Below are positions 3,091-62,314 of a stretch of 64,000 nucleotides of DNA, piece by piece. Numbering within the stretch: position 1 is the stretch's first letter; each line of letters opens with the position of its first letter. Made by a program: the position numbers and the translations under genes. Below the pieces are notes generated by a model that was given only the letters and a program-made list of their open reading frames with translations, was not told the origin of the DNA and did no database searches. The DNA lies in contig DASTXL010000001.1 in NCBI GenBank assembly GCA_035758565.1, positions 11,242 through 75,241 on the forward strand, read 5' to 3'. The stretch is from Candidatus Saccharimonadales bacterium (GTDB lineage Bacteria; Patescibacteriota; Saccharimonadia; Saccharimonadales; UBA10212).

Positions 3091-4990
3091 GCAGAAATAT
3101 CTGGATTATTTTAAGGATAAAGACCACGCCATTGTGCCGCGGGCACTGTTGGTGCCGCAGAACGACCCGACGACGCTATTTACCGGCTCCGGCATGCAGC
3201 CGATGATCCCGTACTTGCTGGGAGAATCACATCCTGGTGGCAAAAGGCTGGTCAATAGTCAGCCTTGCTTACGTGTCCAAGATATAGAAGAGGTGGGCAA
3301 TAGTAAACACACTACTTTTTTTGAAATGCTTGGTAATTGGAGTTTGGGCGATTATTTCAAAAAAGAACAAATCAAATACTTCAGCGACTTTATTTTTGAT
3401 GAACTAAAACTAGAGCCGGATAAGGTTTACGTAAGCTGCTACATCGGCAACGAAAAGTTCGGAATTCCGCGGGACGACGAAGCTATCGAATGTTGGCAGC
3501 AAGCTTTTAAAGAACGAGGCGTTGATGCCAAGGTGGTAGAAATCGGTGCTGCCAGCCGGGGTGCGGAAGTAGGTATGCAGGGCGGCCGGATATTCTTGTA
3601 CGACGGTAAAGAAAATTGGTGGAGCCGGAATGGTGATGAAAACGGTACGCCGGTTGGTGACCCGTGCGGCCCGGACAGCGAAGTGTTTTATGATTTTGGT
3701 GAAGAACTTCATGACGAACAGGAATGGGGCAAGGCCCATCCGGCCAGTGATTCTCCACGCTTTTTAGAAATCGGCAACAATGTGTTCATGGCTTACAAAA
3801 AAACTGTCAGCGGATTTGAAAAACTGCCAGCCACGAATGTTGACTTTGGGGCTGGCCTAGAAAGAATCGCGGCTGCAGTTAACGGCCACCACGATGTTTA
3901 CCGAATTAGCTTAATTTGGCCAATCATTGAAAAACTAGAAGAGTTATCAGGCAAGAAATACGAAAGCCACACTGAAAGTATGCGCGTAATTGCGGACCAT
4001 TTACGAGGAGCCACATTTTTGGCAGTAGATGGCGTAACACCCAGCAACAAGCAGCAGGGTTATGTCATGCGCCGCTTACTGCGCCGGGCGATCCGCTACG
4101 CTTTTGAACTAGGCATCGAGCAGGACCTGTGCGAGCAGGTGGCGCCGATAATTATTGATTTATATAAACCCGATTTTCCGGAAGTCGACGAGCGCGAAAA
4201 GCAAGTCCTTGAAGTATTTACGCGCGAAGAAAAAATTTTCCGCCAGACTCTGCGCAAAGGCCTGCTTGAATTTAATAAACTACTCGGGTCAGCTTTTCCG
4301 GCATCATATCCAATGGCAATCGGCGGCAAAAAACCACTAACGGGAGAGTTAATTTTCAGACTTTATGATACTTTCGGTTTTCCGGTGGAATTAACAAAAG
4401 AAGAGGCGTTCAAGAGAGGCATTCAAATTGCTAATGGAGCTGACGAAGACTTTGAAAAGCTGATGGAAGAACAACGCAAGCGCTCCCAGACGGCTAGCGC
4501 CGGGATGTTCAAAGGCGGCCTAGCCGACCATTCTGAGCAGGTTATTAAGTATCACACCGCCACACATTTGATGTACCAAGCGCTCAAAAATGTTTTGGGC
4601 GACCACGTCGTGCAGCGCGGCAGCAACATTACAGCCGAACGCCTGCGTTTTGACTTTAGCCACCCAGAAAAAGTCAGCCGCGAACAGCTAGACAAAGTCG
4701 AAAAAATCGTGAATGAAAAAATCGCCGAAGATTTGCCAGTCAGCTGGCAAGAAGAAAAGACCGAAGAAGCCTTCAAAAAAGGCGCGTCTGGTGCCTTTGG
4801 CGACAAATATGGCGATACGGTCAAAGTCTATACCATCGGGGATCCGGCTAAGCCGTTCAGCCGCGAAATCTGCGGCGGCCCGCATGTTGAGCACACCGGC
4901 GTGATCGGCGAAGGCGGCAAAAAATTCAAAATCATAAAAGAAGAAGGTTCTAGCGCCGGCGTCCGCCGCATCAAAGCAGTACTGCAATGA
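3065..4990 (+). CDS. alaS: Alanyl-tRNA synthetase, short form ending after the editing domain
   Basis: N-terminus MTAQEIRQKYLDYFKDKDHAIVP..LFTGSGMQP. Editing-domain motifs HTATHLM and CGGPHV. The protein ends ...SSAGVRRIKAVLQ with no C-Ala domain. The start is probably ATG 3071. Confidence 0.9.
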   Translation: MLMTAQEIRQKYLDYFKDKDHAIVPRALLVPQNDPTTLFTGSGMQPMIPYLLGESHPGGKRLVNSQPCLRVQDIEEVGNSKHTTFFEMLGNWSLGDYFKKEQIKYFSDFIFDELKLEPDKVYVSCYIGNEKFGIPRDDEAIECWQQAFKERGVDAKVVEIGAASRGAEVGMQGGRIFLYDGKENWWSRNGDENGTPVGDPCGPDSEVFYDFGEELHDEQEWGKAHPASDSPRFLEIGNNVFMAYKKTVSGFEKLPATNVDFGAGLERIAAAVNGHHDVYRISLIWPIIEKLEELSGKKYESHTESMRVIADHLRGATFLAVDGVTPSNKQQGYVMRRLLRRAIRYAFELGIEQDLCEQVAPIIIDLYKPDFPEVDEREKQVLEVFTREEKIFRQTLRKGLLEFNKLLGSAFPASYPMAIGGKKPLTGELIFRLYDTFGFPVELTKEEAFKRGIQIANGADEDFEKLMEEQRKRSQTASAGMFKGGLADHSEQVIKYHTATHLMYQALKNVLGDHVVQRGSNITAERLRFDFSHPEKVSREQLDKVEKIVNEKIAEDLPVSWQEEKTEEAFKKGASGAFGDKYGDTVKVYTIGDPAKPFSREICGGPHVEHTGVIGEGGKKFKIIKEEGSSAGVRRIKAVLQ

Positions 4991-39605: not shown

Positions 39606-39715
39606 AACTAATTACGACCCCGCTCTTTTTGGCTACTTGATTGCCAAAAAGAGCGGGGTCTTGCATTGTCCTTGCTTTTCCGTTTGCTTTATCCTAAAAG
39701 CTCGCGGGTTATAAT
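39606..39715 (+). repeat. tRNA-downstream module D, copy C (perfect 18-bp hairpin and shared promoter block)
   Basis: CTAATTACGACC, then GACCCCGCTCTTTTTGGC tacttgatt GCCAAAAAGAGCGGGGTC, then CTTGCTTTTCC..., then AAGCTCGCGGGTTATAAT. That last block is identical to copy B. Confidence 0.7.
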
Positions 39716-43645: not shown

Positions 43646-43694
43646 TACTTACTAGAATACACTCTAAGCTTAAAGCTCGCTTTAAGCTTAGAAC

Positions 43695-51555: not shown

Positions 51556-51686
51556 CACGGTCTTGCTAAGAAGTTGGTTTTATGATTTAATAGTAACGCT
51601 CTAGTGTAGGTTAAGCAGAATACGGTTTGGGCGATCTGGAGTGCCTTGTATTCCTGTGGAAACAGAAATCGACCAAGGAGGATGTG

Positions 51687-54600
51687 GTGAAATTCCACAC
51701 CGGATGGCGGCCCAAGGTCGCCTGGCTCGTGGTTGCCGCGGCAGTTCTGCTGCTTGCGGCCACCGTCAGCGGTTCCGCCAGGGCGGATGCCCCGGCGACC
51801 GTGTACGTCAACTCGGCCTGGAGTTCGGTGGCCAACGGGGATGACCCGGACGGCACCGGCCCGGCCACGGCCATGGGCACGGACGCGTTCAGCAACCTGC
51901 CCGATGCCGAGGCGGCGCTCGCCGACCACGGCACCATGTACACGAAGGGCACGTTCGATGCCTCGGACATCGCCCTGAACAAGCCGTTCACGCTGGACGG
52001 CCAGGGCGAGACCGAGCTCGACGTGTCCGCCGGCAGTTCGCCGGTGAACGCGCTCGACATCACGTCGGACGACGTGACGGTCACGGACGTCCACATCGTC
52101 GGGCCGGCCGCCGGGACGAGTTACCTCAGCTTCAGTTGGGGCAGCGACATCACGCGCGGCATCACCGTCGCGCAGGGCGTCACCGGGTTTGCGATCACGA
52201 ACAGCGTGATCGAGGGCCTGCGCAACGACATCCTGATCGACGGCCGCAACAGCACCGGCTCGGTGACGGGCAACACGATCGACGACTCCAAGTCGGCGAT
52301 CTCGGTGCAGTACACCGACGGCACGGGCCTGACCATCAACGACAACCAGGACGGCCAGTACGGCAACGAGTGGGACCTGAACCTGCACCTGAACGGGAAC
52401 TACGACGGTTCGACCACCCACTCCAACCCGTACCCGGGCGGCGCGGCGCCGGACGATGTCCAGCAGCACCTGCTGGACCTCAGCTCGGCCAACGACGGCT
52501 GGTCCGTTCAAGACCAGGCGTACACGTCGCACAACCGCACGGTGGCCTACGTCAGCACGTCCGGATCGTCGAGCAACCAGGGCAGCCCCCTGAACCAGCT
52601 CAGCACGATCCAGGCTGGCGTGGACGCCGTCGTGAAGACCGCCACGGTCCACGTCGCGGCCGGCACCTACGCGGGACAGGTCAAGATCAGTAAGGACCTG
52701 AACCTGCAAGGGGCCGGCACGGGCAGCACCACGCTGCAGGCGGCGGCCTCGATGCCGTCGTTCACGATCAACGGCTCGGCGCACTCGCCGGTCGTGGCCG
52801 TGGACGGTGCCAAGGTCACCATCAGCAACCTGACCGTTGACGGCAACGGCCAGGGCAACAGCAACGGCCGGTTCAACGGGATCGGCGGTTCCAACGCCGA
52901 CCTGACCATCGACGATGTGTCAGTCATTCACGTCCGCAACAACCCGCTCGATGGGGTGCAAAGCGGCGTAGGCATCTACGACTACAACACCGATGGCTCG
53001 AGCCGGACGGTGAAGGTCGAGAACTCGACCATCGCCGACTACCAGAAGGGCGGCGTCGTGCTGTCAGGCTCCGGTCTGACCGCCGACGTCGAGAACGTCA
53101 CCGTGACGGGCGCCGGGCAGACCAGCCTGACTGCCCAGAACGGCATCCAGGTCAGCTACGGCGCGTCGGGCACCGTCACCGGCAGCACGGTGAGCGGCAA
53201 CTACTGCACGCTCGCCAACTCCGGCGACAACTGCACGGCCGACCCGGCCGGCAGTGATCCGAACGCCGACGGTGCGGCGGGCATCCTGCTATACCAGGCA
53301 GGCTCCGTCGAGGTCGGCGATAGCACGGTGAGCAACAACCAGTACGGCATCTGGAGCGTGGGCAGTTCTTCGCTGAACATCCACGACAACCAGGTGAGCA
53401 GTTCGGGCTCGACGAGCTCGGGCGTCGCCGTCTGGAACCAGGACCAGTGGTCCAGTTCCGCAACAGCGACCTCGGGGAGCATCACCGGCAACACCCTGAG
53501 CGGCATGGGCTACGGGCTGCTGATCCGCGACTACAACGGATCGAACGCCCCGACCGTGACCGCTCACGGCAACCAGATCACCGGCAATACCGTGCCGGCG
53601 GCGAGCAACACCAGCTTCGACGCCACTGGCAACTGGTGGGGTTCGGTCTCTGGGCCGGGTACGCTCACGGACGTGACGACCAAGCCCTGGGCGACGGACG
53701 CCTCGTTCAACACCCAGAGCAACAACGCCGACCTGACGAACCTGAGCCTGTCAGCCGGTACGCTGAACCCCGCGTTCAGTGCCGGTACGACGGACTACCA
53801 GGCCAGCGTCGACAACAACACGTCGAGCGTCAGCGTCAGCTGCTCGGCCAACCCCGGCGCAACCGTGTCCGGGTGCGGCAGCTCGGCCCTGTCGGTGGGG
53901 AACAACGTGGTCGCCATCACGGTGACGTCGGCCGACGCTTCGGTGTCCAAGACGTACAACGTGGTCGTCAACCGCGCGTCGGCTCCGTCCTCGGGCGGAG
54001 GCGGCAACACCGGTGGCGGCGGTACGCCGCCGCCCACCACGACCAGCACGCCTCCGACGGTGACGACGTCGCCTGACGGGAGCGTGACCCACACGGCGCC
54101 GGCGGACCAGTTCGGTGTCGTGAGCGTGACGACGCCCGCAGCGGCGGGCACGAACAAGTCCGAGTCGCTCTCGGTGATCTGGGGTGCCGGCACGTTCGGC
54201 ACCACCAGCGACCCGGTGGCGGTGAACTGCAAGCCCATCCCGGTGGGCTCGCAGAGCAACAACAGCAGCTACCGGTTCGCCGATCAGGTCGTGAGCATCA
54301 CGGCCGAGCTGAACGGCAACCCGATCACGCAGCTGTCGGCCCCGCTGGAGATCGTCTTCTCCAGCCCGGGGGAGGGGTTCGTCCCCTCGTACTCGCACGA
54401 CGGGGTGCACTTCACCAACATCCCGCTGCTCACCCGTCCGCCGGATCTGCCGGCGGGCCAGGCGGACGGCTACTACGTCGATGACAACGGGCGCTACCAC
54501 GTGCTCACGCGTCACCTGACGATCTTCCGCCTGATGGACGGCACGCCGCCGACCGCGTCGAAGCTCAAGATCCGCCCCACGAAGAAGTGGCTGCGGGCGA

Positions 54601-54842
54601 GCTGGAGCGCGTCGCACGACAACATCGGCGTCGTCAGCTACATCGTGTACCGCAACGGTCACGGCTACCGCGTGTCCAAGCACACGTACATCCCCCTCCT
54701 CCTGCGGGCGGGCAAGTACGTGGTTCGTGCCCGTGACGCGGCGGGCAACCTCAGCAAGCCGTCGGCGACCGTCACGGTTGTCCGCGTCCGGGTCACCCGG
54801 CACGGCAAGCACTCCACGGTCCTTCAGGTGAAGAAGGGCTGA
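51687..54842 (+). CDS. Large secreted beta-helix surface protein (PbH1-like repeats, cadherin-like beta-sandwich, G/P/T linker, FN3-like C-terminus); high-GC island
   Basis: AAGGAGG at 51675-81, then GTG 51684/51687. Signal peptide KVAWLVVAAAVLLLAATVSGSARA. Beta-helix repeats (NSVIEGLRNDILIDG, GNTLSGMGYGLLIRD, HGNQITGNT). ADLTNLSLSAGTLNPAFSAGTTDYQASV. GGGGNTGGGGTPPPTTTSTPPTVTT. DNIGVVSYIVYRNG. About 65-67% G+C. Confidence 0.7.
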   Translation: MKFHTGWRPKVAWLVVAAAVLLLAATVSGSARADAPATVYVNSAWSSVANGDDPDGTGPATAMGTDAFSNLPDAEAALADHGTMYTKGTFDASDIALNKPFTLDGQGETELDVSAGSSPVNALDITSDDVTVTDVHIVGPAAGTSYLSFSWGSDITRGITVAQGVTGFAITNSVIEGLRNDILIDGRNSTGSVTGNTIDDSKSAISVQYTDGTGLTINDNQDGQYGNEWDLNLHLNGNYDGSTTHSNPYPGGAAPDDVQQHLLDLSSANDGWSVQDQAYTSHNRTVAYVSTSGSSSNQGSPLNQLSTIQAGVDAVVKTATVHVAAGTYAGQVKISKDLNLQGAGTGSTTLQAAASMPSFTINGSAHSPVVAVDGAKVTISNLTVDGNGQGNSNGRFNGIGGSNADLTIDDVSVIHVRNNPLDGVQSGVGIYDYNTDGSSRTVKVENSTIADYQKGGVVLSGSGLTADVENVTVTGAGQTSLTAQNGIQVSYGASGTVTGSTVSGNYCTLANSGDNCTADPAGSDPNADGAAGILLYQAGSVEVGDSTVSNNQYGIWSVGSSSLNIHDNQVSSSGSTSSGVAVWNQDQWSSSATATSGSITGNTLSGMGYGLLIRDYNGSNAPTVTAHGNQITGNTVPAASNTSFDATGNWWGSVSGPGTLTDVTTKPWATDASFNTQSNNADLTNLSLSAGTLNPAFSAGTTDYQASVDNNTSSVSVSCSANPGATVSGCGSSALSVGNNVVAITVTSADASVSKTYNVVVNRASAPSSGGGGNTGGGGTPPPTTTSTPPTVTTSPDGSVTHTAPADQFGVVSVTTPAAAGTNKSESLSVIWGAGTFGTTSDPVAVNCKPIPVGSQSNNSSYRFADQVVSITAELNGNPITQLSAPLEIVFSSPGEGFVPSYSHDGVHFTNIPLLTRPPDLPAGQADGYYVDDNGRYHVLTRHLTIFRLMDGTPPTASKLKIRPTKKWLRASWSASHDNIGVVSYIVYRNGHGYRVSKHTYIPLLLRAGKYVVRARDAAGNLSKPSATVTVVRVRVTRHGKHSTVLQVKKG

Positions 54843-54952
54843 AGCTGGGAGTAAGACCCAGCAATTGGCTAGGCGCATCCTAGATCTACTGGCTCCCCCA
54901 TGGAAGGGTGAGACGGTAGGTCGCTAGAAGATGTGACTCGCCAAAGCACTAC

Positions 54953-54997
54953 CCCCCGGTTCGACTGCAAGGATGCAGTCTGGGCCGGGGGCTTTTT
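54953..54997 (+). terminator. GC-rich rho-independent terminator of the high-GC island gene
   Basis: CCCCCGG..GACTGCA agga TGCAGTC..CCGGGGG followed by CTTTTT. Confidence 0.75.
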
Positions 54998-55023
54998 AGT
55001 TTTAAATTGATATACTTAAGCTT

Positions 55024-56280
55024 ATGAAAAAACTAGCCCGGCAAATTGTAGCCGCCATCCTGGCCTGGCAAGTTCGGCGCCTGCAAAAGAAAAATAATTT
55101 TAAAGTAGTTGCCGTGGCTGGCAGTATCGGCAAAACTAGCACAAAGTTTGCTATTGCTAATGTGCTCTCGGCGGGCTTACGGGTGCGTTATCAAGAAGGT
55201 AATTATAACGATTTGGTAACTGTGCCGCTGATTTATTTTGGTCGCCCGGAACCAAGCCTGTTCAATCCACTGGCCTGGCTAAGCGTATTCATAAAGAACG
55301 AAATTCAACTGTTTAAACCCTGTCCTTACGATGTAGTGGTTGTAGAAGTAGGCACAGATGCGCCAGGTCAAATCATCCAATTTAAAAAGTTTCTAAAGGC
55401 CGAAATTGCCGTAGTTACAGCTATCACACCCGAGCACATGGAGTTTTTTGAAGATCTGAATGCAGTTGCCGTTGAAGAGTTAAGCATCTCCCAGATGGCC
55501 AGCCTAACTTTGCTAAATAAAGATTATGATCACGCTACCCAAACCGATGGTGCCCTAACTTACGCGATAAACCAGCCGGCTGATTTTCAGATGAGCAACA
55601 TTCAATTCAGTAAGTCTGGTTGCGACTTTGATGTGCTGGCTGGCGGTAAAAAAATATTCAAAGCCGAACACGAAGCTTTTGCCGAGCCTCAACTCTATGC
55701 AATTCTGGCTGCAGTCGCCGTAGCCTATAAACTTGGGCTAGATAGCCAAACAATTCAACAAGGTTTGAGCAATATTCAGCCAGTGGCTGGCCGAATGCGT
55801 CGCCTGCCCGGTATTAATAGATCGACAATTATCGATGATACCTATAATGCCAGCCCAGAAGCAGTTAGCGCTGCACTAAAAACCCTGTATCGCCTGCCAG
55901 CTTCGCAAAAAATCGCCATTTTGGGCAATATGAACGAACTGGGTAAATTTTCTAAAGCGGCACACGAAGAGGCTGGCCAATTTTGTGACCCCAAGCAACT
56001 AGATTTAGTAGTCACGATTGGTCCAGACGCTAATAAATATTTGGCTCCGGCTGCCGAAGCCAATGGTTGCACAGTTAAAGTCTTCGATGATCCATATTCG
56101 GCCGGCGAGTTTGTCAAATCTCAAGTCAAAAAAGGCGCGTTAATCCTTGCCAAGGGCTCGCAAAACAAAGTCTTTGCCGAAGAAGCGATAAAAATTTTGC
56201 TGACTAACCCAGAAGACGCTTCGAAGCTAGTGCGCCAGTCGAAGTATTGGCTAGAAGTAAAAAGGAAGAATTTTAAATGA
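55024..56280 (+). CDS. murF: UDP-N-acetylmuramoyl-tripeptide--D-alanyl-D-alanine ligase
   Basis: Mur ligase P-loop VAGSIGKTSTK and DDTYNASPEAVSAAL, typical of MurF. It is adjacent to ddl. Confidence 0.85.
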   Translation: MKKLARQIVAAILAWQVRRLQKKNNFKVVAVAGSIGKTSTKFAIANVLSAGLRVRYQEGNYNDLVTVPLIYFGRPEPSLFNPLAWLSVFIKNEIQLFKPCPYDVVVVEVGTDAPGQIIQFKKFLKAEIAVVTAITPEHMEFFEDLNAVAVEELSISQMASLTLLNKDYDHATQTDGALTYAINQPADFQMSNIQFSKSGCDFDVLAGGKKIFKAEHEAFAEPQLYAILAAVAVAYKLGLDSQTIQQGLSNIQPVAGRMRRLPGINRSTIIDDTYNASPEAVSAALKTLYRLPASQKIAILGNMNELGKFSKAAHEEAGQFCDPKQLDLVVTIGPDANKYLAPAAEANGCTVKVFDDPYSAGEFVKSQVKKGALILAKGSQNKVFAEEAIKILLTNPEDASKLVRQSKYWLEVKRKNFK

Positions 56281-59164: not shown

Positions 59165-62100
59165 ATGAAGCGATACAATCCCAAAGAGATTGAGCCAAAA
59201 TGGCAGAGTGTTTGGCGCGAATCCGGCATTTATAAAACGGACATGAGTCGTACCAACGATAAGTTTTATGTAATTCCGATGTTGCCGTACCCGTCCGGCG
59301 ATTTGCACATTGGCCATTGGTATAACTTTGCTCCAACAGATACAGTCGCGCGCTTTCGCCGCATGCTGGGGCAGAACGTTTTCACGACCGTTGGCTTTGA
59401 TGCGTTTGGTTTGCCAGCCGAAAACGCGGCGATTAAACGCGGCATTCAACCGGCAGTCTGGACTTACGGCAATATCGCCACTATGACCAAGCAGCTGGAG
59501 CAAATTGGGGCCAGCTACGATTGGGGCCACAGCTTAGCCACTTGCAAGCCGGATTATTATCACTGGAATCAGTGGCTGTTTTTGCAACTTTATGAAAGGG
59601 GCTTAGCTTACCGCGCCAAAAGGGTAGTTAACTGGTGCCCCAAAGATCAGACGGTGTTAGCCAACGAGCAAGTTGTTGGCGAAGAGAACGTTTGCGAGCG
59701 CTGCGGCACGCCGGTTGTTCAAAAAGAACTAGAACAATGGTTCTTTAAGATCACCAACTATGCCGACCGCCTGCTGGACGATTTGGAAACTGTTGATTGG
59801 CCGGCCAAGGTCAAAACCATGCAGGAAAACTGGATTGGCAAAAGCAAAGGCGCCCTGATCGATTTTGAAGTGGCTAAATCTGATGCTCATAGCTCAGAAA
59901 AGCACAAGGAAGAGCCGAAGTGCGGACAAAGCGGTACAAAAGCGTACCGCGGAGAGAGCACTGGAGGATCTGACGCGGTGATTGCTGAGAGTGCCGGCAG
60001 TGTTTCCGGCTCTGCCGGAAAGCAGGACGGCACGGCTATGAGCGTCAGGGTTTTCACTACCAGGCCGGATACGATTTACGGTGCGACTTATATGGTCCTG
60101 GCGCCCGAACATCCGCTGGTGCTAAAAATCACCAGTGACGAATGCCGCGAGCGGGTTGAAAATTATATCGAAGAAACTAAGCGTAAAACCGAGCTGGAAA
60201 GAAAGGAAGGCGAAAAGCATAAAACAGGAAGCTTTACTGGTGCTTATGCCATCAACCCGGCAACCAAGAAAAAGATTCCGATCTGGATTGCTGATTATGT
60301 ACTGGCGAGCTACGGTACCGGTGCAATTATGGCGGTACCGGCGCACGACGAACGCGACTGGGAATTTGCTAAAAAGTTCGACCTGGACATCCAGCCGGTT
60401 GTGGCGCCAATTGTGACCGACAAAGATCATCCGCCCAGGAGCGACAAAGAAAACACTCAGCGCAACGTGGCTATGTGTTTGGTTAAGCATCCTAAAAACG
60501 ATGAGATCATTACTTTAAAATGGCCTAAGTTTGGCTGGCGCGGCTTGGTAACCGGCGGCGTAGAAAAAGGCGAAGATTTAATCGAAGCCGCCGAGCGCGA
60601 AATCACAGAAGAAACCGGCTATAAAAACATGAAGCTGGTCGGCCGCGTACCTTATCCGATTAATTCGCTGTTTTACGCCGAGCACAAAGACGTTAACCGT
60701 GATGTGTTTATGAACATCATGATGTTTGAACTGACCGACTTAGAACAAGTGGCTACCAAAAAAGAAGCTCACGAAGATTTTGAAGCTGAGTGGTGGCCAT
60801 TAAATAAAATTAGCGAGCTATGGCCAGTGTCTGAGCTAGAGTATATTATCGCCTGGCTAAAAAACGGCGACCAAGCTTATGCTGGCGAAGGTACCATGAT
60901 AAATTCCGGTAAATACGACCGCATGAGCTCGGCCGAAGCTCGGGAAAAAATCGTTGCCGATCTAGAAAAAGAAGGCATTGCCAAAGAGCAAACTAACTAC
61001 AAGTTGCGCGATTGGCTGATTAGCCGCCAGCGCTACTGGGGCACGCCGATTCCAATAATTTACTGTAACGACTGCGGCATGCAGACAGTGCCGGAAAAAG
61101 ACTTGCCGGTTATTTTGCCAGAAGATGTTGAATTCACGCCGACTGGACGCAATCCTTTGCTGGATAGACCAGACTTTGTTGGTACAACTTGTCCGAATTG
61201 CGGCAAACCAGCCAAGCGCGAGACCGACACCATGGATACTTTTGTCGATTCCAGCTGGTACTTCCTGCGCTATCTGGATAACAAAAATGATAAAGCGGCT
61301 TTTGATACAGAGCTAATTAACAAATGGATGCCGATGGACCACTACATTGGCGGTATCGAACACGCTATCTTGCACTTGCTATATGCCCGATTTGTCACTA
61401 AATTCTTGCACGATGAACATGGCCTAAATTTTGAAGAACCGTTCCGAAAATTAACCAATCAAGGTTTAATTTTGGGCCCTGACGGTCAAAAAATGAGCAA
61501 AAGCAAGGGTAACGTGATTAATCCGGACGAGCAGGTGACAGGTTACGGCGCCGACAGCCTACGGCTTTATTTAATGTTCATGGGTCCTTACGATCAAGGC
61601 GGGCCGTACTCTTTGGGTGGTATCGCCGGTACGCGCCGGTTCCTGGACCGCATTTGGACTTTGGTTGGCGAGTTTTTGGAAGCCCCAGCCGAAGCCAAAT
61701 CTAATATTAGCGAGACGGCTTTAATGGCTGCTACCCACCGTACTATTAAAAAAGTTACCCAAGACTTAGAAAAGCTGGGCTTTAACACCGCGATTGCTGC
61801 CATGATGAGCCTGGTTAACGAGCTATATAAACAAAAAGCGGCTAATGGTATCAGCCAAACTCCTGCCTGGCGCCAAAGCTTAGAAAGTTTAATTCAGTTG
61901 CTGGCGCCATTCGCGCCGCATATCACCGAAGAAATGTGGCTCGACATGGGCCATGAAGAATCGATCCATGTATCTAATTGGCCACTGTGGGACGAGAAGC
62001 TAGCCAAAGAAGAAATGATAACCCTGGCTGTTCAAATCAACGGCAAAGTCCGGGCTCAAATTACAGTTTCGGCCGACGCTAGCGAACAAGAAATCGTATC

Positions 62101-62194
62101 CGAAGCCAGGGAAGAAGCCGAGGAATATCTTGTCGGAAAAGAAGTCAAAAAAATAATCTACGTCCCTGGCCGCCTAGTTAGCTTAGTAGTCTAG
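59165..62194 (+). CDS. leuS: Leucyl-tRNA synthetase carrying two large in-frame insertions (low-complexity insert and NUDIX domain)
   Basis: HIGH (PYPSGDLHIGHWYNF), editing domain (VFTTRPDTIYGATY; AVPAHDERDWEFAKKF), LRDWLISRQRYWGTPIP, KMSKS (QKMSKSKGN). 1009 aa. Confidence 0.93.
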   Translation: MKRYNPKEIEPKWQSVWRESGIYKTDMSRTNDKFYVIPMLPYPSGDLHIGHWYNFAPTDTVARFRRMLGQNVFTTVGFDAFGLPAENAAIKRGIQPAVWTYGNIATMTKQLEQIGASYDWGHSLATCKPDYYHWNQWLFLQLYERGLAYRAKRVVNWCPKDQTVLANEQVVGEENVCERCGTPVVQKELEQWFFKITNYADRLLDDLETVDWPAKVKTMQENWIGKSKGALIDFEVAKSDAHSSEKHKEEPKCGQSGTKAYRGESTGGSDAVIAESAGSVSGSAGKQDGTAMSVRVFTTRPDTIYGATYMVLAPEHPLVLKITSDECRERVENYIEETKRKTELERKEGEKHKTGSFTGAYAINPATKKKIPIWIADYVLASYGTGAIMAVPAHDERDWEFAKKFDLDIQPVVAPIVTDKDHPPRSDKENTQRNVAMCLVKHPKNDEIITLKWPKFGWRGLVTGGVEKGEDLIEAAEREITEETGYKNMKLVGRVPYPINSLFYAEHKDVNRDVFMNIMMFELTDLEQVATKKEAHEDFEAEWWPLNKISELWPVSELEYIIAWLKNGDQAYAGEGTMINSGKYDRMSSAEAREKIVADLEKEGIAKEQTNYKLRDWLISRQRYWGTPIPIIYCNDCGMQTVPEKDLPVILPEDVEFTPTGRNPLLDRPDFVGTTCPNCGKPAKRETDTMDTFVDSSWYFLRYLDNKNDKAAFDTELINKWMPMDHYIGGIEHAILHLLYARFVTKFLHDEHGLNFEEPFRKLTNQGLILGPDGQKMSKSKGNVINPDEQVTGYGADSLRLYLMFMGPYDQGGPYSLGGIAGTRRFLDRIWTLVGEFLEAPAEAKSNISETALMAATHRTIKKVTQDLEKLGFNTAIAAMMSLVNELYKQKAANGISQTPAWRQSLESLIQLLAPFAPHITEEMWLDMGHEESIHVSNWPLWDEKLAKEEMITLAVQINGKVRAQITVSADASEQEIVSEAREEAEEYLVGKEVKKIIYVPGRLVSLVV
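59885..60043. repeat. Inverted-repeat-bounded, hairpin-rich 159-bp in-frame insertion in leuS
   Basis: GCTCATAGC (59885-93) and GCTATGAGC (60035-43) flank it. Internal hairpins are GCGGTAC/GTACCGC (59931-50) and TTTCCGGC tct GCCGGAAA (60003-21). It encodes about 50 low-complexity residues between FEVAKSD and MSVRVFTTRPDT. Confidence 0.8.
60404..60874 (+). other. NUDIX hydrolase domain embedded in LeuRS (residues ~414-570)
   Basis: Perfect Nudix box GGVEKGEDLIEAAEREITEETGY at nt 60554-60622. It is flanked by beta-strand-like segments (RNVAMCLVKHP..IITLKW; VFMNIMMFELT). Confidence 0.75.
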
Positions 62195-62314
62195 GGGAAG
62201 AGCAGCCCGACAAAATGTATTCCATTTTGCCGGCGCGATGAGAAACCCGCTTGCGGGTGTCTCATAAGGCGAAGCCGCATCTACGTCCCTGGCCGCCTAG
62301 TTAGCTTAGTTGTC
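62156..62314 (+). repeat. Direct duplication of the leuS 3' end (32 nt identical, 36 nt with one mismatch) flanking a two-hairpin insert
   Basis: ATCTACGTCCCTGGCCGCCTAGTTAGCTTAGT occurs at 62156-62187 and 62279-62310. Hairpins between are CGACAAAATG/CATTTTGCCG (62208-32) and ATGAGAAACCCGC/GCGGGTGTCTCAT (62238-65). The copy offset is 123 nt, or 41 codons. Confidence 0.85.

Follow-up and report, generated by a model that had tools for sequence, protein, structure and literature searches.

In textbooks, protein-coding palindromes have so far figured as a curiosity of Rickettsia and of Wolbachia. The size, inverted repeats, stem-loop structure and in-frame translation of Rickettsia palindromic elements (RPEs) and of miniature transposable elements with inverted repeats (MITEs) have been described (PMC2229807; PMC10969869), and template switching creates perfect stems together with multibase compensatory changes (PMC8794818). 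In the literature searched, no paper was found on protein-coding palindromes in Patescibacteria or the candidate phyla radiation (CPR). Here we analyze a self-complementary insertion in leuS, the gene for leucyl-tRNA synthetase (LeuRS), from Candidatus Saccharimonadales bacterium. The gene resides in a stretch of 64,000 nucleotides of contig DASTXL010000001.1, referred to below as the window. Our leading interpretation is a tentative one, to which we assign slightly less than even probability: the insertion would be an old, fixed and vertically inherited protein-coding palindrome of about 153 nt, whose arms co-evolve and which lacks multi-copy mobility.

The insertion in leuS and its fold

The relevant features are listed here with their coordinates in the window.

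59165 to 62194, forward strand: leuS, an intact gene for a class I LeuRS of 1009 residues with the HIGH and KMSKS motifs (list of open reading frames (ORFs), Pfam and alignment with the Thermus thermophilus structure in the PDB)
59885 to 60037 or, equally good, 59873 to 60025, forward strand: the insertion, 51 extra codons (AHSSEK...KQDGTA; codon alignment with the relative L001 and spacer statistics)
59885 to 59893 and 60035 to 60043, forward strand: exact 9-nt inverted repeat, GCTCATAGC and GCTATGAGC (pattern search)
59879 to 59893, forward strand: 5' arm of the terminal stem P1, TCTGATGCTCATAGC (RNA fold)
60035 to 60049, forward strand: 3' arm of P1, GCTATGAGCGTCAGG (RNA fold)
59894 to 59988, forward strand: region of the 4-bp stem P1b (TCAG at 59894-59897, CTGA at 59985-59988), which encloses P2
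59903 to 59980, forward strand: P2, the long and imperfect left hairpin (RNA fold)
59931 to 59950, forward strand: exact apical stem of P2, GCGGTAC aaaagc GTACCGC (repeat search)
59991 to 60033, forward strand: P3, the right hairpin, with a 6-bp outer stem and an inner stem of 8-10 bp
59968 to 59976, forward strand: ATCTGACGC, an internal direct copy of the left junction ATCTGATGC at 59878-59886 (repeat search)

For the leuS product, P0001 ('Candidatus Saccharimonadales bacterium') is a 100% match, and Pfam recognizes its editing, NUDIX and anticodon-binding domains. Spacer statistics were derived from the 120 closest LeuRS. In 97 of these, the motifs NWIGxSxG and FTTRPDT are separated by 16 residues, compared with 67 in the LeuRS of the window. 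The additional residues are located at the tip of the first β-hairpin of the editing domain, a six-residue turn in 97 of the 120 homologues that is enlarged by 51 codons here, and 118 of the 120 lack the insertion. The alignment of orthologs proposed in the first-pass annotation of this DNA therefore bears out the insertion as such, while the 53 extra codons given there have to be reduced to 51 (153 nt), as judged from the 16-residue spacer and from the codon alignment with L001, the closest gene for which DNA is available. The borders remain ambiguous, as the native turn can be aligned as 'AKSD..MS' or as 'DGTAMS' and the alignment fits both, resulting in the two candidate border pairs listed above.

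When mapped onto the T. thermophilus LeuRS structure by PDB alignment, the insertion falls between residues 237 and 238, in the first β-hairpin turn of the editing domain. In an AlphaFold model with a mean predicted local distance difference test (pLDDT) score of 87.4, the inserted segment lies between the strands 226-236 and 293-298, is devoid of secondary structure and drops below a pLDDT of 50 at residues 241-248 and 257-289. It is predicted to form a disordered loop on the protein surface, in line with the surface loop proposed at first pass. The encoded peptide is of low complexity and rich in Ser, Gly, Ala, Lys and Glu. Across the insertion, stops interrupt every frame except that of leuS, and the G+C content at third codon positions (0.51) is close to that of the remainder of leuS (0.54), which fits a long-resident sequence. 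The description as a stop-free insertion that is in frame with an essential gene and lies in a surface loop thus holds, and from the near-complete absence among the homologues we conclude that it is a lineage-restricted insertion.

Two other kinds of in-frame or intervening element were considered and rejected. An intein is ruled out, because 51 low-complexity residues compare with a minimum of at least about 130 residues with nucleophile blocks and because Pfam finds nothing apart from LeuRS and NUDIX domains. No group I or group II intron family was matched in the Rfam search of 59700-60250, which speaks against a self-splicing intron.

At the nucleic acid level, the 9-bp inverted repeats and the two internal perfect hairpins noticed at first pass are all exact. 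The true repeat is longer, however, amounting to 14 nt with 93% complementarity (59880-59893 and 60035-60048) and, as P1, to 15 bp including two G-U pairs in the RNA fold. The inner stem of P3, TTTCCGGC tct GCCGGAAA, is likewise exact and is embedded in an imperfect hairpin of 20 nt at 59991-60033. At minimum free energy (MFE), the segment 59864-60055 folds into a three-way junction composed of P1, P1b, P2 and P3. For 59885-60044, the MFE of the RNA is -74.3 kcal/mol (z = -6.7) and none of 200 dinucleotide shuffles proved as stable; with DNA parameters the same element yields z = -6.4. The longer segment 59864-60055 reaches -83.6 kcal/mol (z = -5.8) in sense and -68.6 kcal/mol (z = -5.3) in antisense orientation. 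For comparison, 110 random 160-nt coding segments of the window gave a mean z of -0.21 with a standard deviation of 1.1 and a minimum of -3.8, whereas the element scored -7.4 by the same procedure; the z-scores for its fold in sense orientation span -5.8 to -7.4. The folding analysis thus supports the unusual structure that had been suspected. As modelled, the DNA of either strand as well as the mRNA can adopt a highly stable three-way junction with a closing stem of 15-19 bp.

The 3' arm of P1 extends beyond the insertion into the codons for V-R, whose aligned counterparts in homologues are the native strand residues I-E. Such an overlap with codons homologous to a native strand is expected if flanks and insertion co-evolve. 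The right arm of P1 is possibly native, since DGTAMS-VRV aligns with DGTDKH-IEV of homologues, and removal of the entire P1-bounded block would leave the native hairpin six residues short. The heptamer CTGACGC of the internal direct copy pairs perfectly with GCGTCAG at 60042-60048 and thereby offers an alternative to outer P1. Rfam 15 returned tRNAs as the only matches at gathering score in the window and, at a cut-off of E = 10, no hit below E = 5 in 59700-60250. ARAGORN did not detect a tRNA-like gene at the element, although its left end carries the tRNA-like TAGCTCAG.

Pairing in a second carrier and the same loop in relatives

One further carrier, P0241 (E = 1.5e-6), emerged when 1.84 billion proteins were searched exhaustively by HMMER with a 57-residue query; it is a 119-residue LeuRS fragment from the soil protein-level assembly SRR5690606. 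This is the sole other occurrence found, and it concerns the same leuS site in another organism. The P0241 insertion is of the same length and can be aligned without gaps at 58% identity; in the right half, 'SDAVIAESAxSVSxSAGKQxGT', 19 of 22 residues are identical, and the SDA motif is present at both places of the direct copy in P0241, too. The presence of an independent, diverged insertion at the identical site argues against an assembly artefact and indicates that the insertion is old rather than recent.

To compare pairing between the two carriers, the P0241 peptide was back-translated such that base pairs of the window were retained wherever the amino acids allowed. Despite differences at 27 of 64 residues, a coding sequence that retains 55 of 56 Watson-Crick pairs is possible. 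This value was not attained by any of three null sets: permutation of the substituted residues (mean 46.6, standard deviation 2.1, maximum 53; 0 of 400), residues drawn at random with unchanged composition (mean 45.9; 0 of 400), and changes at the same sites with the same minimal nucleotide distance per codon in random direction (mean 48.2, standard deviation 1.9, maximum 53; 0 of 600). Sliding the partners along the sequence as a control left 31-40 pairs. The signal is located mainly in the terminal stem P1/P1b, where 8 of 14 codons differ between the carriers and, as read from the peptide, all 19 pairs are still possible (null 15.1 ± 1.35, equalled by 3 of 400). It is weaker for P2, for which 27 of 400 nulls score as high, and absent from P3, in which three codons have changed. 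One two-sided change is unambiguous, namely that from H/M (CAT/ATG) to T/S (ACT/AGT), and a change from G/D to N/V in P3 would lengthen that stem. Substitutions are about equally frequent in paired (18 of 47) and unpaired codons (9 of 17), a pattern that fits both arms changing in concert. Taken together, these comparisons suggest that base pairing, and not sequence, appears to be conserved between the two lineages. Note that the ends differ in sequence and yet stay complementary, unlike ends recognized by a transposase, which are expected to conserve their sequence.

The loop that harbors the insertion is variable in other Saccharimonadia as well. Relatives carry +6, +16, +29 or +120 residues at this position, the last being a domain of unknown type in one relative, or an α/β-hydrolase domain of 170-180 residues (P0002, P0017, P0098 and P0116). 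The editing-domain loop is thus an insertion hot spot in Saccharimonadia. In P0107, the loop insertion is a 66-nt DNA hairpin (z = -4.7), and that of P0083 is palindromic, too (z = -2.3). The +6-residue loops of P0084 and P0077, on the other hand, are unstructured and slippage-like, so that palindromic DNA is not universal among insertions at this loop. A domain is also accommodated further downstream in the editing region:

60482 to 60832, forward strand: NUDIX domain in the LeuRS editing region, residues 440-556 (Pfam and alignment)

Its presence implies that LeuRS of this clade tolerates insertions. Among the 120 closest LeuRS from Saccharimonadia, about half share the NUDIX domain within the editing (CP1) region, P0025 contains an extra NUDIX-box-like insertion, and a paper on a LeuRS-NUDIX fusion was not found in the literature searched.

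A separate observation concerns P0107. Its in-frame insertion ('VMLSGVETS..DPSTRARDD', L003 10724-10789) shares the 11-mer ATCCCTCGACT with an in-frame MnmA insertion of another Saccharimonadia genome ('NPSTALEAGK', L142 1778-1788), and the MnmA homologues P0128, P0136, P0148, P0149, P0152 and P0223 belong with this observation. The shared 11-mer hints at a palindromic repeat family entering different genes in this phylum. A '[DN]PST' palindromic family was nevertheless rejected as a candidate, because among 142 loci the 11-mer is confined to the two sites already known and because matches to its 10-nt core, with one mismatch allowed, are at chance level in the window.

Explanations for the element

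Hairpins are also found elsewhere in the window, and those in mnmA and behind leuS bear on the origin of the element:

1593 to 2720: mnmA, with two perfect in-frame hairpins
2460 to 2490: mnmA hairpin 1, 14-bp stem, 3-nt loop, z = -6.9
2572 to 2616: mnmA hairpin 2, 21-bp stem, 3-nt loop, z = -10
62156 to 62187 and 62279 to 62310: 32-nt exact direct repeat of the leuS 3' end (41 nt with 3 mismatches)
within 62156 to 62310, between these repeats: 82-nt insertion after the leuS stop, two hairpins, z = -2.1

The mnmA hairpins add 18 and 11 residues which are absent in relatives at 86% nucleotide identity, and they are the sole large indels in about 1200 aligned residues compared with an 86%-identity relative. 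Both are reproduced at 100% in a separately assembled Logan contig. The 21-bp hairpin was also considered as a mobile element and rejected as such, its 37-nt pattern being absent from metagenome contigs of the Joint Genome Institute (JGI). A search for ancestral arms in relatives yielded 12 of 17 and 9 of 11 matches, which is weak and not significant. The similar insertions in mnmA and after the leuS stop to which the first-pass annotation had drawn attention are therefore both real. With the leuS element as query, blastn detected no similarity to either of them in the window, such that they form one class with it at most by mechanism. The genome seems prone to hairpin-forming insertions, although a single element family is not shown.

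In the scenario we favor, self-complementary DNA of about 153 nt resides in frame in the first β-hairpin turn of the LeuRS editing (CP1) domain. The ribosome would read through it, and the segment would be translated and tolerated rather than removed, as the uninterrupted frame, the intactness of the domains and the structure model suggest. A floppy loop at the tip of a hairpin, away from the active sites, would permit the insertion. Mismatches in the hairpins may be copied from arm to arm by replication template switching (quasi-palindrome correction), with the consequence that the arms co-evolve. Template switching would both create and maintain the stems and would render transposition unnecessary; in a loop free of protein constraint, the same process may have built the element stepwise, and it may also have produced the perfect and recent mnmA hairpins. 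We rank template switching above transposase-dependent mobility, because end sequences diverge while complementarity stays and because paired codons change about as often as unpaired ones.

Several points weigh against this reading. The covariation in P0241 is deduced from amino acids, the assembly being available at the protein level, and back-translation is permissive: chimeras taking one arm from each species still give 51-52 pairs. The carriers of the insertion are two sequences. Over the 58 residues flanking the insertion, P0241 is 76% identical to the window, while many homologues without insertion are no less similar and reach up to 88%, which hints at a patchy distribution brought about by loss or transfer, although the fragment is short and possibly chimeric. 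Within the source genome, the search for copies covered the 64 kb of the window, next to about 420 kb more on the same contig and to other contigs, and further copies may exist there. That template switching causes the co-evolution of the arms is inferred, and no hairpin arm is clearly ancestral. Finally, selection on an mRNA fold would give the same pattern, and the present data do not separate the two.

This last point leads to a broader alternative. It may be the nucleic acid fold rather than the peptide that is selected, i.e., a three-way junction of about 170 nt in RNA or single-stranded DNA that would lie in frame in leuS of a subgroup of Saccharimonadia, be maintained through covarying codon pairs and function in cis, for instance in pausing, RNase III processing or autoregulation, or else a CPR-specific mutational process may build and perfect palindromes in loops of essential proteins, as in mnmA. 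We consider this unlikely, but it is by no means far-fetched.

The specific version in which the peptide is a passenger of a selected, cis-acting mRNA structure, serving in pausing at the boundary of catalytic and editing domains or as a binding site for RNase III or LeuRS, appears somewhat less probable still. It is consistent with the retention of pairing across two diverged lineages, with a sense fold that is 15 kcal/mol better than the antisense fold and makes use of G-U pairs, and with the conserved alternative pairing CTGACGC/GCGTCAG. In addition, 'SDAVIAESA' around the junction is the best conserved part, above some enzyme flanks, and in relatives nusB, a gene for a NUDIX protein and rnc lie downstream of leuS. 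Any such function would have to be lineage-specific, however, because the insertion is lacking in 118 of the 120 closest LeuRS. Moreover, Rfam has no matching family even when hits up to E = 10 are admitted, z-scores are comparable with DNA parameters and for the antisense strand, and the supporting covariation is that seen in the peptide and not in DNA.

On a par with this in probability is the proposal that the element landed in the loop as a member of a family of small, transposable palindromes of the MITE, REP (repetitive extragenic palindromic) or RPE type, active now or until recently, and has survived as a stop-free multiple of three. Its size, terminal inverted repeat, stem-loop fold and in-frame read-through match the MITEs and RPEs reviewed (PMC2229807; PMC10969869), different palindromic insertions occupy the same loop in P0107 and P0083, and the P0107 11-mer recurs in the mnmA insertion of another genome. 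The distribution among LeuRS looks patchy, and the search encompassed a small part of the source genome. The marks of mobility that were sought in the window were not encountered: blastn at word size 7 recovered the element and its own inverse but no second copy in the 64 kb, and the 14-nt end gave 9 matches with up to three mismatches where 8.4 are expected by chance. At neither candidate border (flanks ...GCTAAA/TCTGAT... and ...GTCAGG/GTTTTC...) was a direct repeat indicative of a target-site duplication present, the element ends lack TA termini, and its composition resembles that of the host gene.

Public collections were scanned with the pattern GCTCATAGC-N(125-155)-GCTATGAGC. The 11 matches in a viral collection are all unrelated. 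A collection of genomes, the source genome not being among them, returned at least 120 rows, and none of the 128 matched segments listed is like the element; the Saccharibacteria matches among those listed represent one conserved, unrelated locus. A partner insertion sequence (IS) with the same ends was not found either, as judged from end-sequence matches in the window and from the matches listed in the genome scan. In a metagenome scan with the alignment of the two insertion peptides, none of 600 pattern matches was confirmed, and a word-indexed peptide search gave no candidates, a weak negative since the source protein itself was not returned. The peptide searches thus led to the orthologous site alone, and between the two carriers the terminal repeats have diverged in sequence and kept their pairing. 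An active, multi-copy transposable element is not supported by these results. Of the earlier idea of a small MITE/REP-like palindromic element, what remains is the analogy with a small palindrome read through by the ribosome, while copies, target-site duplication and conserved ends are missing; the further suggestion of an active class of small insertions in this genome finds no backing, given that the other carrier has its insertion at the same leuS site.

Very unlikely, and largely refuted, is an ordinary expansion of a low-complexity linker or a decayed remnant of the α/β-hydrolase, with the nucleic acid structure being incidental. The peptide is indeed rich in Ser, Gly and Ala and predicted to be disordered, four relatives have the hydrolase in the same loop, that of P0002 starting with 'VASKAD' (the window has 'VAKSDA'), and the +6 expansions of P0084 and P0077 point to slippage at this position. 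The z-score of the fold is far outside the coding background, however, the substitutions in P0241 preserve pairing even when compared with the null permuting the same residues, and MAFFT scattered the insertion over the hydrolase region without evident similarity. An artefact of assembly or a chimera in this metagenome-assembled genome can practically be dismissed: although one contig is the only known source of the exact LeuRS and amplification or assembly chimeras can yield palindromes, an independent soil data set contains a diverged insertion at the same site, the frame is open in an otherwise intact gene, and the mnmA hairpins of the same genome recur unaltered in the separate Logan contig.

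Should DNA confirm the pairing, one stretch would evolve under two codes, an open reading frame and a nucleic acid fold. If this is true, the locus would be a clean place to ask whether the fold persists by selection or by template-switch correction. Considered alongside the two recent, perfect mnmA hairpins, the leuS insertion also suggests that insertions forming hairpins are one of the main ways in which loops of conserved proteins have grown in these reduced genomes.

Further features of the window and comparison with known systems

Several side observations were made. The downstream copy of the leuS 3' repeat would encode an alternative C-terminus (..SLVVVG*), and in the relative L001 the leuS stop is separated from the next gene, which encodes a small basic protein, by 70 nt alone. 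Further perfect hairpins are an 18-bp one at 39616-39660, directly downstream of tRNA-Cys, and a 13-bp one in an intergenic gap at 43663-43692; as a baseline, stems reached at most 11 bp across 20 windows shuffled by a Markov model. The stretch 54843-55020, located upstream of an ORF at 55024, is intergenic and strongly folded and ends with a GC-rich hairpin and a T run. It resembles a small RNA or leader, and Rfam gave no match to it at gathering score. The preceding ORF (51627-54842, 1071 residues) has a G+C content of up to 68% (51921-52120), compared with a mean of 49% for the window. Its product looks like a surface protein rich in repeats, and horizontal acquisition is possible. In alaS, the last ~80 aligned AlaS residues (~4000-4248) are near-identical to those of L135 (12500-12745), with a single mismatch, while the rest of AlaS is visibly more diverged from this relative; the near-identical stretch may be a recombination tract.

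How does the leuS insertion relate to described systems? Insertions in the CP1/editing domain of class Ia aminoacyl-tRNA synthetases are similar insofar as the same loop takes up the hydrolase domain, the unknown 120-residue domain or short loops, with NUDIX following downstream. These are folded domains or unstructured slippage products, however, and are devoid of nucleic acid palindromy. REP and REPIN sequences, which are mobilized by RAYT, are imperfect palindromes 20-40 nt in length, extragenic, abundant and often arranged in inverted pairs, whereas the leuS element, with its length of about 160 nt, is single and lies within a gene.

With bacterial MITEs such as Correia/NEMIS, ERIC, RUP and YPAL, the insertion has in common the small size and the terminal inverted repeats (14 nt, 93%), and these elements likewise give rise to base-paired transcripts and, in some cases, to open frames fused to genes. 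In contrast to them, it shows no target-site duplication, TA termini, multiple copies or partner IS that could be found, and its ends are not conserved in sequence. Hairpins that originate from template switching arise in one step as perfect or near-perfect reverse-complement repeats, and both sides of their stems change together (PMC8794818), which fits the codon changes in P1 as well as the mnmA hairpins. Such events have been described for RNA genes and non-coding DNA, while here the process would act in the translated loop of an essential protein.

The greatest resemblance is to RPEs, which are about 105-150 bp in length, have terminal inverted repeats and a long stem-loop, and reside in frame in housekeeping genes, where they are translated and tolerated at the protein surface (PMC2229807; PMC10969869). 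All of this holds or, as regards translation and tolerance, probably holds for the leuS insertion, with its stable palindromic fold (153-171 nt, 15-bp stem) and its in-frame surface location. The two differ in that RPEs form a repeated family of dozens of copies with a conserved peptide in unrelated genes, while one other copy of the leuS insertion is known, at the same site. They also differ in their hosts, Rickettsiales (Rickettsia and, as also reported, Wolbachia) for RPEs and Patescibacteria/CPR for the leuS insertion, and in that the ends of the latter keep pairing and not sequence. The leuS insertion is therefore best filed as a relative in kind of the RPEs, known here from one locus: a palindrome in an essential aminoacyl-tRNA synthetase, apparently restricted to this locus, in which pairing rather than sequence has apparently been kept.

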